Source of the DNA: Gracilinanus agilis
Taxonomy: Eukaryota
Direction of reading: 5' to 3'
Length of the DNA: 64,000 bases
Assembly: GCF_016433145.1 (NCBI RefSeq)
Contig: NC_058131.1
Coordinates: 176,286,924 to 176,350,923 of the forward strand
Shown here: piece after piece, positions 3,960-48,739 of the stretch
Position numbering within the stretch: position 1 is the first letter of the stretch
Layout of the letters: each line of letters begins with the position of its first letter
Notes under the pieces: model-generated
What the model was told of the DNA's origin: nothing
The model's input: only the letters and a program-made list of their open reading frames with translations
Database searches by the model: none
Made by a program: the position numbers and the translations under genes

Positions 3960-5490
3960 GCTTGTATATGTCTACCTCCAGAGAAAGAACTATTATAGAC
4001 TAAGAATCATTAGACAACCTGAAAGTTATGACCAAAATAAAAGTGAGATTAGACATCACATTTCAAGAATTCTCAAAACTACCCAAATCTTTTAGAACTA
4101 GAGGGAAAAGTAGAGACAAAAAGAATTCGCAAATTAGAAATTCCAAAATGAACATCTCCAGGAGCATTATAGCCAAAATCTAAAAATGTCAGGTTAAAAA
4201 AATAATAGTGCAAGCATCCAAGAAGAAATAATTTAACTACTGAAAAAGTCACAGTCAGACTCGGATATGACTTAGCAGCCACCATTCTAAAAGAATGGAA
4301 AGGCTGAAATGCAATATGCTAAAAGGCAAAAGATACAGACTTTTACTCAAGAATAGCCTATGTAGAAAAAAAAAAAAACATATAATCCTATATGAAGGTA
4401 GGGCCTTCAAAGAAATAGAGAACTTACAGGCCTTCCTAATGAAAAGACAAAGGCTACATAGGAATTTTGACTGTTAATCACATAAGTAGAAAAAAATATA
4501 AAAACGTACATGTGAACAAACAATAGTAAAGAAATAAATGAAGATAAATTGCCTATTTCTAATATGGGCAGATACTACATATGCCCCCTCTAAATACAGT
4601 CATCATTAGTAGTCACAGAGGGATTGTAATTAAACAAAAGCCCTGAGGACTGTTTCAATTTTGTCTTGATGATCTTGAAAAAAAATTATGGAAAGGGATA
4701 GGAATAGGAATATCTGGCAGGGCGGGAGGTAAGGGGAGGTTAGGGGAAATTCTCTCACATAATTAGGGTGAACAAGTAGAAATCTAAAACAAAAGGGAAG
4801 TCAGGGGAAATGGTTGACACCCAAACTTTATTCTCATCTGAAGTGGTCAAAGGAGGAAGAACACTGGTCACTTAGAGTTGATTCTATACCACATTTCATT
4901 CAATAAAGAAATATGAGAAAAAGAAGAGAGGAAAGTACTAAAGGTAAGGATATACAAAAATATTCATAACTCTTTTTGAGGTGGCAAAGAATTAGTATTT
5001 GAAGTGGCATATTCAAATGGAGATAACTGAACAAGTTATGGTATATAAATATGATGTAATACATTGTACTATATTGTTAGAAATAATGAAAGGAGTGGGT
5101 TCAGAGACACATGTGAAGAATTATGTGATCTGATGCAGAGTAAGGTGATCAGAACTAAGAGAACGTTTTATATAATGACAATATTGTAAAGAAAACTTTC
5201 AAAAATCAAGAATGCTGATAAAGCTAATGACTAACCATGATTCCAGAGAATTATTGATGCCTATCCACTTCGTGACAGAGATAAAATAATTAGAATGCAA
5301 AATGTCATTTCCATATGAATATACATATAATTTTTTTTCTTTTAAACATGGCCAATGCAGAAATTAGTTTGCTTGACTGTACTTGTTTATAATAGGTTTT
5401 TTTTCTTTCATTTTCACTTGTGGTAGTGGAAGGAAAAATGGTGGATTTTTTCTGAATGAAAAAAATTAAAATTTACTTTTAAAAAAGAAC
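3960..5490 (+). mobile_element. Old L1/HAL1-like element: ORF1 C-terminal remnant followed by an L1-type 3' terminus
   Basis: 3985-4477 translates with frameshifts to L1 ORF1p C-terminal motifs (DLAATILKEW, FKEIENLQAFLMKRQRLHRNFD). 4960-5480 resembles the extreme ORF2 C-terminus and 3'UTR. No EN/RT sequence is seen between them. Confidence 0.7.
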
Positions 5491-44339: not shown

Positions 44340-47162
44340 AAAATATATATGTATATTATGTATAATATGCAGATATTACATAAATATAGATATACACTTA
44401 CCAGTGAATATATTTTAGAATATAAACTCCTGAATCTCAGTGACTATTTCTCCAGCATCATTTTGTCCCCAACTCTAAGCCCAGTTTCTGGCAAATAGTA
44501 GGTACTTAATAAATGATTTATTCATCTTTTCTTCACTTGTTTTCTTTCTTTCCCATTGATTCTCTCTTCTATTTTGCCTATCTTCATTATTTAATAAGAT
44601 TCATCAGTCTGATAAGACACTCTCTCCCCAGCTCAATGGGACTATAGAATGTAAGCTATTGTCAGAAGGGTATGGGGGTGGAGAGAAGGACAATGAAGTT
44701 AGATTCTGTGGAAGCTGAAATGTAATACCTGATAGCCATGTGCTACAGATTCCTGTGGATATTGTTGCTCTGTAATTGTGGCTGCCTCCTGATGATTAGG
44801 TGACTATAGCCCAAGAAGGAATCTCTGAGGAAACATCTTCCTTCAGGCTATAAGAGTGAGCTATGAGACACTACTTCTTCCTTTCGCCTTTTCTGCATGC
44901 TTTATAACCTTTGAACTCCCTGAGAACAGCAAGAGAGAAGGGGTTTTCTCACTCCTACTTCCCTAGAGCAGAAAATAAAAAGTATCAGGAGGGCAAGCTA
45001 ATGGGTCCCAAGGTATGCTTTTTCAGATGAACCTGAGATTGTTTTTCCAAAACCTCAAATTCAGGACTGTCTTATTCTCCCTGTCTAGTTCTATTTCTGA
45101 TAATGTGTTGGAAATTAGTGATCGGGAGGAAGGCTATTTTCAGTCTTGTGGTCTATCTAGTAGTCAGTCCTGAATGTTAGGGCCTAGGAAGGTAATTCTT
45201 GAGTTCCTTTCTGCCATTTGGAGACTTCCTTAAAAATGCAGTTTTCAGAGAGAATGATTTCCAAAAGAAAGATCTTATAGCTGTCAATTAAGCTACATGT
45301 GGTCAATATCTGTGATATTGCTATTAGTTGTTCAGATGATGAAGATTCAAGAACAAAAAGAAAAATACATATACATATATACAGAAAACCTCTATAAGGT
45401 ATTCATCTTCAGGGAAGAATATAATAAATACATAATAATTATAATAAAGGGCTTTTTCAGTACCTTATTTGACATATTTATTAATAAATGCTTTTGACTT
45501 CTTTCATTTTATACATTTTCTGTGTGGGGTGAAATAAAAACAGGTTATTATAACCAGTTAACCTATTGAGTATTGAATAACTTCCACTATAGGAGAAAAC
45601 CCTATTGTCCACCTTAGGGGATACCTGGATATAAGCCACACTTAAGATTCATTTTAGAGATGGCCCAGGAGTTCTGTCCCAAAGTAGGGACAGAGACAAA
45701 GGAAGATGATGGCATTCTGGAGTAGGGATTGAACCCTGGGTTTGATGCTCATCCATCCAAATTATGATTGAACCTCATCCATCTGAGCCAAGAATCAGAC
45801 AAGGAAAATAGTAAAGCTGAAACTCTGTCACAGATGATGAAAGGATCATAGGACTTAGGGAGGAATGCACTTCAGAGATCTTCTAATATTGCCTCAACAA
45901 TTAAGAGATTATAAAATTGAATTGAGGTCCAGAGAGAAGGGAGGTGCATAAGGTCACACAGGTAAGTCAGTAGCAGAGCAGGGATTCCAACCCACGTCTT
46001 CTGCTCCCAAATCCAGTGTTGCATTTGCTACTACTATCTACCTCTCTTATTCTTATTGCTATGAGGCTTCATTTCCCATGGTGCTCGTCTCTCCCTTTCT
46101 TGCTCTGTTCATCTTGATGGAGTTCAGATACCTGACTAAAGGCTAAGATATCTCTTCTCTCATTCTTTTGCTCTTCCCTTAAGTTCTGATTTCCTGTGTA
46201 ACTGACTAGCAACTCTACTCTGAGGAAAAATTCCAGTACAACATTTTTTCTTAACTTTCTCTCCAACTTTTTGCAGCCATTTCTTGCTGTCAGCTCACTA
46301 ACTCATCTCTCCAGTTCTCATGTTCCCCTTACAAAAATATCTGCTCACTCTGACCTTTGAAAAGGGCAAGAGAGGTTTTTAGCACCAACTAACAGAAAGG
46401 AGATGAGACGTCTGACAGTACCCATGGCACCAAGGATACTCTAATTTCCCATAGTAGAGCCTCCATATCTCTTGGCTGAATCACTCTACTTCTTAAGCAG
46501 CTGAAGATAGTAAATCTGCAGTGGAGATACAAAAAGAAATAGACTTCAAAGTATAAATTGTTGCCTGTAAAGGAAGCAAAAACTTGTCATCTTTCATCCT
46601 TACTATCCAGGGCAAATGTAGCCTTGAAAAATTCCCTTTAAGGAAGTCCTCAGTTTGAGTATTTGCTCCATAATCCCCTTTGTCCTAAGATGATTGCTTT
46701 GAGCTTCACAATTTAGCCACATTGTACAGTTTAAGAGAGTATTTTTTAAGACATATGTATTTTAACTTTCTCTTTTTATACCAAGCTACTCAGTCCATTC
46801 CCCTCTAGCAACAGGGAACTTTTCAAGAAGCTTAAGTTAGAGAATAAGCTTTCACATTGTATTCTTCAGTTTAAAGTCAGAAGACAGTGTTCTGAGAAGA
46901 GGCATAGATGTGGAGATTTTTTTTTTTTAAAAGAAGAAAGATATGAATTCAAATTCCAGCTCTGTCACTTTCTACTTGTATAAACTGGTGCAAGAATTTC
47001 AGTTTTCTGTGACTATTTCCTTTTCTATAAGATGAAAACAAGTGGGTTACATGAGATCAAAGTATTTAGACCTGGAAGAGATGCTTAAAGATCATCTACT
47101 CTGACCTCTAAACATTTTTATCTCTAAACATTTTTCCATAATAGGAAACTGAGCCCTAGAGA

Positions 47163-47565
47163 GGGGCAGCTGGGTGGCTCAGTGGATTGAGAGTCAGGCC
47201 TAGAGACTGGAGGTCCTAGGTTCAAGTCCGGCCTCGGACACTTCCAGCTGTGTGACCTTGGGCAAGTCACTTGACCCCTATCGCCCACCCTTACCACTCC
47301 TGGGCCAAGGACAGTCCCTAGCCCAGATGAAAAAGGAGGAGGGTTGGGCGTGGGGCTAGCAACCCCACCCTGTAAAAACTACATCTGCTAAAGAAACTGC
47401 AACCTAAAGTAGGGGCAGCTGGGCTAGCTCAGTGGATTGAGAGCCAGGCCTAGAGAGGAAAGGTCCTAGGTTCAAATCCGGGCTCAGACACTTCCCAGCT
47501 GGGTGACCCTGAGCGACCCATTGCCTACTGGTTGTGGCCCTATGCTCCTAGAATGGAGTCCCAGG

Positions 47566-47622
<57 letters not shown>
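47163..47622 (+). mobile_element. Composite retroposon: SINE-1 head + RTE-5'UTR-like segment + second SINE-1 head + RTE-3'-like segment + A55
   Basis: Two Pol III A/B-box heads (47163, 47412), a pure poly(A) at 47568-47622, and TSD GAGCCCTAGAGA (47151-47162) / GAGGCCTAGAGA (47623-47634). It interrupts an antisense MIR. Confidence 0.85.
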
Positions 47623-47626
<4 letters not shown>

Positions 47627-48739
47627 CCTAGAGAAACATGACCTCTGGTTCAAGTCACACAACTAGCAAGCAGCAGAGCTGGAATGATCTCTTATGTCTC
47701 ACACAGCACTCTGGCATCTTGTATTTATAAGATTCTTTGACTATCTTAAAGCCTGAATTGTTTCAGCTTATTAAGCAGAAAAGAGATGCCTGGTAGAAAT
47801 CTAAAAAGATGTGCTTGGCTGGACCCTTTTTTTCCAAGATCACAGTGTCAGCTTTGATGAGATATTTAATTAACAACAATAGTAAAAGATGGTTGACTTT
47901 TAGAAACTGGAAATACTCACATATACAGCCCTTGTCTCCCTTCCTGCACTTTCTCTTCTGGGTGTGTATGTATTTTTCATTAAACATTCTTTGGTTCTTG
48001 AGATATTGAAGTTATTCAGCATAATACCTACTCATTAGAAATGCTTTATACTTATCATATCTTGAAGATGGACTTATCAGTTCTTTCTTTCAACCCTGTG
48101 TCCCAGATTAATATGCATTGTGATAGAACTTATTTGACAGGCTTGAATGGGTCAGCCCACAAGGAGATAGCATTACTAACACAGAGCTGTTTGAATAGAA
48201 CTTAGAGTAGGCATTTGTTTTTTGTCTAAGTTGCAGTTGCAACAAGCTCTGGCCTAATAGAAAGATCTGCATTCAAATCATGGCCATGCTATGTACCATA
48301 TGTTTGATTTTGGAGTAATCTAGAGTGGTTTTCTTATTCAAGAAGTTATCAGTTGAATTACAGGGTGTCTCAAAAAGTCTTAGTTTGGCTTTACCTATAA
48401 TGAGACCTTCTAGACATCATGTCTATGACTTCTAAAGTCCTTTCCAACCCTAAGATTCTGGTATTTGGGGAAATAACTAAACCTCTATGGCATTCAATTT
48501 CCTCATTTAGAAAAAGAGGAGAAACTTAATAATCATTAATGTGTTTTTCCACCATAAACTCTTATAATCCTATGACGCAATAATTCAGGCCTTAAGAGAC
48601 ACTCTTCTCCCACATGTAAGCTCCTTCCATTAACAAGCCATCTCTTCTACAAGAGGAGAGTTACTCTTTGAGAGTTAATTTGGCTAAAATTTCATCAATC
48701 CAGGAGAAAAAAAGATTTATTAATTCCAATATATGGAGG

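Follow-up and report, generated by a model that had tools for sequence, protein, structure and literature searches.

The element at positions 47151-47634 of the window (the entire 64,000-nt stretch of DNA that was analysed) belongs to a composite SINE family of about 4,500 members, in which two SINE-1 heads are combined with both ends of an RTE LINE. We give a probability of about 0.78 to the reading that this family was copied by the RTE protein rather than by L1, that the RTE was likely acquired horizontally, and that the twister ribozyme carried by the SINE is, as predicted, inactive. The parts of the element are as follows.

47151..47162, + strand: 5' target-site duplication (TSD), 12 bp
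47163..47299, + strand: head 1, SINE-1-type tRNA-like head and CORE-type body (presumed assignment); A box at 47175, B box at 47219
47294..47347, + strand: decayed relic of the twister-P1 ribozyme with which the RTE begins, predicted to be inactive (12.4 bits against Rfam RF03160)
47300-47411: middle (non-SINE) segment between the heads
47304..47405, + strand: RTE 5' UTR fragment corresponding to RTE nt 7-109, in agreement with the majority of 11 RTE copies at 93/103 positions
47406..47411, + strand: 6-nt linker from the RTE fragment to head 2; the same junction occurs 2,897 times in the genome
47412..47528, + strand: head 2, second SINE-1-type head with the CORE part deleted; A box at 47425, B box at 47469
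47529..47567, + strand: RTE 3' end with a stem-loop at 47544-47559; RTE copies share 21-23 of 21-23 nt
47568..47622, + strand: A55 tail, 55 uninterrupted A
47623..47634, + strand: 3' TSD, one mismatch to the 5' copy

The TSDs, head 1, the middle segment, head 2 with its internal deletion, the 3' segment and the A55 tail were all located as the preliminary description had delimited them. Its remark that CpGs are retained holds for part of the element, but this copy has lost two CpGs of the middle segment to decay. Head 1 is 91-93% identical to the SINE-1 monomers in the window, the two heads are 86% alike over 74 nt, and head 2 of this copy represents a subfamily with an additional 8-bp deletion. 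We take the window monomers to be SINE1_Mdo / SINE-1_MD. The likeness to this opossum CORE-SINE (PMC4408412, available part) consists in an identity of 87-93% between three window monomers of the type and both heads, together with the A and B boxes.

Each head has the A and B boxes of an internal Pol III promoter, as expected of a tRNA-derived SINE, and that of head 1 likely serves the entire unit. The 405-bp body (57% GC, 6 CpG) has no TTT run, and the first TTTT at the locus lies at 47827. ARAGORN found no tRNA gene in the window. Folding z-scores of four element segments (-0.9 to -1.5) were not significant; the 3' hairpin at 47544-47559 is present in the MFE fold (z = -1.1). A scan of 47000-47800 against Rfam gave chance matches only, the twister relic of this copy being too decayed to be noticed by such a scan alone.

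Exact 27-28-mers over the three junctions occur 2,521, 2,897 and 3,027 times in the genome (reversed-pattern controls, 0). Since 61/99 junction-3 matches also match junction 2, the number of copies was estimated at 4,400-4,700. Of the whole-element matches listed, 40/40 were at 97-100%, and 72/107 sampled copies begin within the first 12 nt of head 1. The composite is short, non-coding and multi-copy, with TSDs and a simple tail, like other SINEs. The identical junctions, the independent TSDs of the family members and the lack of a separate TSD around head 2 bear out the earlier proposal that the unit was retroposed in one piece; the junction counts and the missing internal TSD exclude a nested insertion. 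No RNA run was listed among the sequencing runs that contain the sequence. In a comparison of such runs with 47285-47567, at a likeness of 85%, X2 (organism A) covered 29/29 bins, and X5, X9 and X18 (organisms B, C and D) covered 13/29 bins, corresponding to the SINE head only and to neither RTE part; as contigs indicate presence and not absence, we do not count this as evidence. No description of the composite was found in the openly accessible literature searched.

Composite copies are about 1.1-1.5% diverged at non-CpG positions. The preliminary description regarded the element as very young, perhaps polymorphic or still active, and in favour of a recent polymorphic insertion of a still active family, the pure A55 tail is the longest among 96 composite tails measured (median, 11), and the window copy has just two substitutions outside the recurrent variable sites (compatible with 0.06-1.8% divergence). 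The tail length is therefore a feature of this copy and not of the family. Against recent activity, no identical pair was found among 130 full-length copies (8,385 pairs), the nearest copy to that in the window is 3 substitutions away, the window TSD has a mismatch, and none of the eight near-full RTE copies checked has an unbroken ORF. We consider continuing activity unlikely; the burst of the composite dates back some millions of years and is probably over, or nearly so.

A 3.15-kb RTE LINE of the same genome is the source of both non-SINE segments, which derive from its 5' and 3' ends, in agreement with the RTE origin suspected previously; the composite joins an RTE 5' UTR segment and an RTE 3' end in the manner of bipartite RTE-dependent SINEs. 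The 5' UTR fragment, which includes a GGGTTG...CAACCC hairpin motif at 47341-47365, is 87% identical to RTE copy L140, and the middle segment is 10% different from the RTE majority. Searching with the SINE context excluded gave 242 places that share this 3' end; of 30 that were inspected, one was a copy of the SINE, 13 were internally deleted RTEs with the middle segment, and the rest were RTE 3' parts. ORF pieces of the RTE (two pieces, from different copies) encode an APE endonuclease, an RT and DUF6451, as in the single ORF of Perere-3/Sr3-like elements. Among 47 RTE 3' ends, the 3' stem is preserved over 7 loop variants, the loop and the last bases of the composite's 3' segment being SINE-specific; the stem-loop is predicted to be the signal that the RTE protein recognises. 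Searches for the donor returned SINE copies only and no RTE that has the 5' variant or the 3' loop of the SINE, and 27 metagenome loci were at most 68% identical to the query and had no usable 5' ends. The exact donor is thus missing from the searches, so that some of the twister changes described below may predate the fusion.

The insertion sites identify the probable source of the copying machinery. TSDs were found in 71/102 composite copies (31/102 without a detected TSD), with a median of 11 bp, an AAA start in 11/71 and A/T at -13..-11 in 60/71. The corresponding values are 12/18 copies, 12 bp, 1/12 and 12/12 for the RTE, and 23/26 copies, 14 bp, 18/23 and 5/23 for SINE-1 monomers. The composite is like the RTE (P = 0.07 for TSD length, P = 1.0 for the start) and unlike the monomers in TSD length, start and upstream patch (P of about 1e-8 to 1e-9; 7e-10 for length and 6e-8 for the start). 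Its sites have the form T|A, with a TSD of 11-12 bp and an A/T patch at -13..-11, and the AAAA start was seen in 3/71 composite TSDs versus 16/23 monomer TSDs, so the TT|AAAA sites and 13-16 bp TSDs of L1-dependent SINEs are not characteristic of it. According to the available part of PMC6007223, the RTE signature is a TSD of 10-12 bp with an upstream T patch, and that of L1 is a TSD of 13-15 bp. The site of the window copy is RTE-like (T at -1, C at -2, A/T at -13..-11), with a TSD that begins with G, not A. Moreover, independent insertions of composite and RTE copies have hit identical sites within another repeat (L011, L014 and L183; L098 and L136).

These results largely refute the alternative that the element is a SINE-1 dimer mobilised by L1, with the RTE fragments as mere passengers and the A-tail as the functional signal, and we regard it as very improbable. 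Nearly all composite copies do have A-rich tails, and the L1 machinery was present, since the SINE-1 monomers of the same genome show its signature. The composite tails are A-runs, sometimes (TAAA)n, the RTE tails are (TAA)n or other short repeats, and the composite does not end in the microsatellite of its partner LINE, an ending that is common in such SINEs rather than strictly required. The A-run is an L1-like trait and counts against an RTE driver, and some copies, given the 11/71 TSDs that start with AAA, may have been moved by L1. Nevertheless, copying by the RTE protein rather than L1 is most likely for the composite, which has switched to RTE-type sites from the L1-type sites of the SINE-1 monomers (about 190 bp, with their own tail).

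The 5' end of the RTE resembles a twister ribozyme, with an RF03160 match in 9/9 RTE-type loci scanned. The scores (33.7-45.6 bits) do not reach the Rfam gathering score of 67.2; the target site supplies the P1 5' strand, and a 6-nt joiner stands in place of the P3 stem. The remaining twister-P1 core (NAA loop, P2, pseudoknot GC, L4 and GAGGG) agrees with Table 1 of PMC8501958. AA occupies +1/+2 in 95%/97% of 59 RTE-type ends, and nothing is conserved upstream, contrary to the earlier suggestion of an RTE promoted by a SINE-1 head. The RTE copies start at the predicted 5'-AA cleavage product of a twister-P1-like ribozyme, a genomic footprint that agrees with self-cleavage. The genome holds 160 exact intact twister cores (476 if CpG decay is allowed); literature searches found no report of native twister ribozymes in mammalian genomes. 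Pseudoknot-free pairing probabilities gave 0.0 for P4 in RTE and SINE twisters alike. An HDV-type ribozyme, judged by eye, did not fit.

In the SINE, the same segment scores 12.4 bits (E = 5.4) in the window copy and 26.2 bits in the sister copy L090, and three lesions are fixed: one A instead of two in the L1 loop (148/160 copies), a 3-nt insertion after P2 (152/160) and an A-to-T change in L4 (147/147 scored of the 160). The segment therefore has neither the two or more A in L1 nor the intact L4 of a twister, and the window copy has two additional CpG decays in P4. Variants with 0A or 1A showed no cleavage in PMC8501958, and we predict that the SINE twister is inactive. It might instead still cleave weakly, with copies that start just upstream representing cleaved RNA and the lesions being tolerated changes from an unseen RTE subfamily. 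In favour of this, 9/23 sampled truncations (body 13-239) start in the 14-nt interval 122-135 (binomial P = 5e-6, for an interval picked after the data were seen). However, most of these ends are ragged and fall 4-12 nt upstream of where the cut would be expected, in contrast to the sharp AA start of the RTE copies, and the retention of head 1 in the majority of sampled copies and the behaviour of 1A variants also argue against cleavage. We find weak cleavage doubtful. The twister origin of the middle segment, like the likely horizontal origin of the RTE, was absent from the preliminary description.

The RTE protein is 82% identical to an unnamed sequence, 74% to a killifish sequence, 68-69% to sequences from snails and a characiform fish, and 52% to Schistosoma; no mammal is named among the 120 best matches, although most of the top matches are unnamed. 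In a quick, midpoint-rooted tree of 27 chosen rows without native marsupial RTE, the RTE copies of this genome nest with fish and snail elements. Of the named elements, those of fish and molluscs are closest to it, which points to horizontal transfer; the RTE likely entered the opossum lineage from fish or invertebrates. The other possibility is that the driving RTE belongs to an old marsupial family passed on by vertical descent (RTE-1/2/3_MD type) and that the composite is already catalogued. RTEs are reported from all marsupial orders (PMC4408412, available part), and the bipartite elements MAR4_MD, RTESINE1/2 and WALLSI are known. This possibility is rather improbable given the 74-82% identity to non-mammalian or unnamed elements; in addition, three motifs of the element are absent from the supplement of PMC5786205, in which alignments are broken across lines, and the RTE-1_MD, MAR4_MD and WALLSI segments displayed there look unrelated. 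As far as this partial comparison goes, the Monodelphis RTE, RTESINE, MAR4 and WALLSI elements proposed previously as parents appear to be of the wrong lineage. In a screen of 2,271 genomes, Perere-3/Sr3-like sequence was found in one mammal only (PMC13155389, available part). That 2026 paper, in the part available, treats its mouse opossum hit (Gracilinanus agilis) as likely contamination, without transposition. The weak hit, which may be the same element, resembles the RTE described here in its domain set, its clade and its didelphid host. In contrast to the contamination reading, the RTE of this genome occurs on each of the seven large contigs, has TSDs and has become joined to native SINE heads.

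The driver RTE shares with Perere-3/Sr3 of Schistosoma, which have a 5' twister T-variant (PMC8501958, available part), a single APE-RT-DUF6451 ORF in about 3.15 kb, the twister core, a TSD directly before the 5'-AA, and short 3' repeats. It differs in its marsupial host, in the replacement of P3 by a 6-nt joiner, in the 52% identity to Schistosoma proteins, and in having given rise to a Pol III SINE whose twister is crippled. The composite likewise resembles WALLSI2, Mar-1, Bov-tA, AfroSINE and Ped-2 as presented in the available part of PMC5786205, which have a tRNA-type head with a CORE-type body, an RTE 5' UTR piece, an RTE 3' end and RTE-type TSDs. Unlike these SINEs, it has a second SINE head between the two RTE pieces, a 5' piece that is the extreme 5' end of the RTE with a twister relic, an A-tail in place of the partner microsatellite, and a different RTE lineage.

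Transcription by Pol III would run from head 1 through the T-run-free body. The RTE protein would then bind the 3' stem-loop, nick at T|A about 11-12 nt from the A/T patch and prime in the tail. A ribozyme behind a SINE head has been argued to cause 5' truncation (PMC5786205, available part), and an active twister would sever head 1 from every daughter copy. Consequently, a master could spread together with its promoter only if its ribozyme was crippled, and transcripts of the SINE, with a twister predicted to be dead, would keep the upstream Pol III head. On balance, and with some reserve, we favour a history in which a Perere-3-like RTE with a working twister passed, in about the last ten million years, from an aquatic animal to a single lineage of mouse opossums, left hundreds of twisters, and gave birth to a two-headed SINE that could spread only after breaking the ribozyme.

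If true, a LINE was transferred horizontally into a mammal and was written off as contamination in a recent paper, and a mammalian genome holds native twister ribozymes, live-looking and crippled versions of which coexist in one genome. The composite would also be a direct example of the predicted need for an RNA-headed SINE to shed the 5' ribozyme of its partner LINE, and a natural experiment in the birth of a SINE and in a switch of driver from L1 to RTE. Its lineage-limited insertions, about 4,500 in number, would serve as phylogenetic markers for didelphids.

The preliminary description had proposed a composite SINE in the window, and the element is present there with all of its parts in the places described. 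Seven SINE-1 monomers (ordinary single-head SINEs) also lie in the window.

Features of the window
47151-47162: 5' TSD of the composite
47163-47299: head 1
47300-47411: middle segment (RTE 5' end, twister relic)
47412-47528: head 2
47529-47567: RTE 3' segment
47568-47622: A55 tail
47623-47634: 3' TSD, one mismatch to the 5' copy
12245, 18634, 42863: SINE-1 monomers, plus strand, 81-93% to head 1
23291, 27832, 28434, 44338: SINE-1 monomers, minus strand, 81-93% to head 1

Shortly before the insertion lies a perfect 14-bp direct repeat (47106-47135), which probably has nothing to do with it.

The composite represents a family: copies with identical junctions are spread through the 3.70-Gb host genome (six large contigs, 299-801 Mb each, plus a seventh of 82 Mb), where the exact junction words occur in thousands (head 1/RTE, 2,521; RTE/head 2, 2,897; head 2/RTE 3', 3,027) and control words for all three junctions had 0 occurrences. 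Whole-element matches were 97-100% identical in 40 of 40 among the matches listed. In the first 169 Mb of one contig, the RTE/head 2 junction was also present in 61 of 99 matches to the head 2/RTE 3' junction, from which we estimate 4,400-4,700 composite copies. The contig layout of the genome fits a 2n=14 didelphid and differs from that of Monodelphis domestica, and repeat libraries built for Monodelphis may therefore lack this family. Among 30 position-picked copies, 21 were full-length, seven were 5'-truncated and two were of other forms. A few diagnostic sites set apart three subfamilies, and the window copy falls into the subfamily whose head 2 has lost 8 bp (14 of 74 sampled copies). Short copies starting at body positions 240-253, which are owed to the second head, are a minority (8/107), and some short copies appear to be head 1/head 2 recombinants. 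Six short copies (L207, L218, L226, L227, L233 and L236) consist of one head and the RTE 3' end, and four of these start with head-1 letters and look like such recombinants. At locus L108, the composite directly abuts an upstream tRNA-like 3' end finishing in CCA, which suggests a tRNA-SINE chimera formed by template switching. The 5' part is inverted, as in twin priming, in one SINE (L099) and one RTE (L140).

With a pattern excluding the SINE context, the same 3' motif was found at 242 places in the genome; of 30 inspected, one was the SINE itself, 13 were RTEs with internal deletions in which the middle segment is also present, and all others were 3' parts of the RTE. A search for the full-length RTE yielded 20 loci, and both ends were obtained for 11, whose majority sequence is 3,159 nt. 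The SINE middle is identical to nt 7-109 of this RTE at 93 of 103 positions, and the 3' segment matches its terminal hairpin. Pieces of the RTE ORF contain the domains Exo_endo_phos, RVT_1 and DUF6451. An RTE carrying the SINE's own variants of these segments was looked for in the genome and not found, which leaves the fusion without its exact donor. Numerous distinct RTEs shortened by internal deletion to 274-706 bp (L124, L125, L127, L128, L131, L133, L134, L136 and others; L306-L335) have intact-looking twister cores, and they show seven 3' loop variants and differing tail repeats; they group into a number of small RTESINE-like families that share the driver RTE.

All nine RTE-type loci that were scanned matched the Rfam twister-P1 model at the first bases of the RTE (E 1.4e-7 to 1.3e-3; 33.7-45.6 bits, all below the gathering score of 67.2), and the core is that in Table 1 of PMC8501958 except for a 6-nt joiner replacing P3. 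According to that paper, Perere-3 twisters cleave to 5'-AA with P1 supplied by the TSD, and 0A and 1A variants show no cleavage. At 59 RTE-type 5' ends, A occupies +1 in 95% and +2 in 97%, and no conservation was found upstream of them. The genome holds 160 exact intact twister cores, or 476 if CpG decay is allowed. The SINE twister has a single A in its L1 (148/160 copies), three bases inserted after P2 (152/160) and an A-to-T change in L4 (147/147 scored); only L090 among four SINE loci scanned together gave a twister-P1 match (26.2 bits), and the window copy scored 12.4. In the predicted fold, the P2-side insertion permits a 6-bp helix capturing the P4/L4 strand, and the SINE twister is predicted to be inactive. 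PMC5786205 notes that a SINE head followed by a ribozyme would be lost through 5' truncation; here, head 1 is retained in 72 of 107 sampled copies, as would fit selection for an inactive ribozyme. Nine of 23 truncated composite copies begin within body positions 122-135, a cluster that lies just 5' of the relic; candidate causes are residual twister cleavage, with its cut expected at 133-134, and 5'-3' decay that stalls on the long helix starting there. A weak SECIS-like Rfam match over the RTE start region (L183:342-403, E 0.13) is probably due to chance.

An 805-aa ORF piece of one RTE copy (L190) had 496 relatives among 7,989 scored, and no mammal was named among the best 120 of these 496. 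Its identities were 82% to an unnamed sequence, 74% to the killifish Nematolebias, 69% to Metynnis, 68-69% to snails, and 58% and 52% to the flukes Trichobilharzia and Schistosoma, respectively. In a quick tree of 27 hand-picked rows (top matches and named ones, with no native marsupial RTE included), two RTE copies of this genome nested with fish and unnamed elements within a snail-containing clade. In PMC13155389, which covered 2,271 genomes, a mouse opossum is the single mammal reported with a Perere-3/Sr3-like sequence, and that sequence is judged likely contamination; it is likely the same element as ours. In the present genome, TSD-flanked RTE copies lie on every large contig and the RTE is fused to native SINE heads, which rules out contamination as its source. 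We consider that the RTE was acquired by horizontal transfer, with a probability of about 0.75.

The non-CpG divergence of position-picked composite copies from their majority sequence is 1.45%, or 1.1% once the diagnostic columns are set aside, and it is 1.1-1.5% inside subfamilies. The opossum substitution rate is near 2e-9 per site per year, which gives an age of roughly 5-9 million years. RTE copies show similar or greater divergence (1.8% at non-CpG sites in 11 best-hit copies; identity of 89.5-97.9% in 11 position-picked copies). Judging from its pure A55 tail, the window copy may be among the youngest, and three substitutions separate it from the nearest of 130 distinct full-length copies. 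The earlier proposal that the element may still be active was not upheld, as no identical pair occurs among these 130 copies and the ORF is unbroken in 0 of 8 RTE copies. Bipartite RTE SINEs are a kind already known; the literature searched (Dfam, Repbase and subscription journals being outside its scope) yielded no description of this composite, of a marsupial twister or of any SINE that contains a twister relic.

Composite copies had recognisable TSDs in 71 of 102 cases (median 11 bp), SINE-1 monomers in 23 of 26 (median 14 bp) and RTE-type copies in 12 of 18 (median 12 bp). In the same order, the TSDs start with AAA in 11/71, 18/23 and 1/12 cases, and A/T occupies all of positions -13 to -11 in 60/71, 5/23 and 12/12. 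A larger RTE set had TSDs in 22 of 29 copies (mode 11-12). PMC6007223 gives a mode of 10-12 bp with an upstream T patch for RTE and 13-15 bp for L1. Moreover, the same sites of another repeat were hit independently by composite and RTE copies (L011, L014 and L183; L098 and L136). Because of this TSD signature and the sites shared with the RTE, the A-tail is not evidence for L1 here; L1 may have driven a minority of composite copies. Among the seven SINE-1 monomers of the window, the four scored have L1-type TSDs. L011 and L023, which have the same flanks, probably represent a single locus that the assembly contains twice, and the repeat hit at identical positions looks like L1 ORF2. The identical-position insertions are endonuclease hot spots, which pose a risk of homoplasy if these insertions are used as markers.
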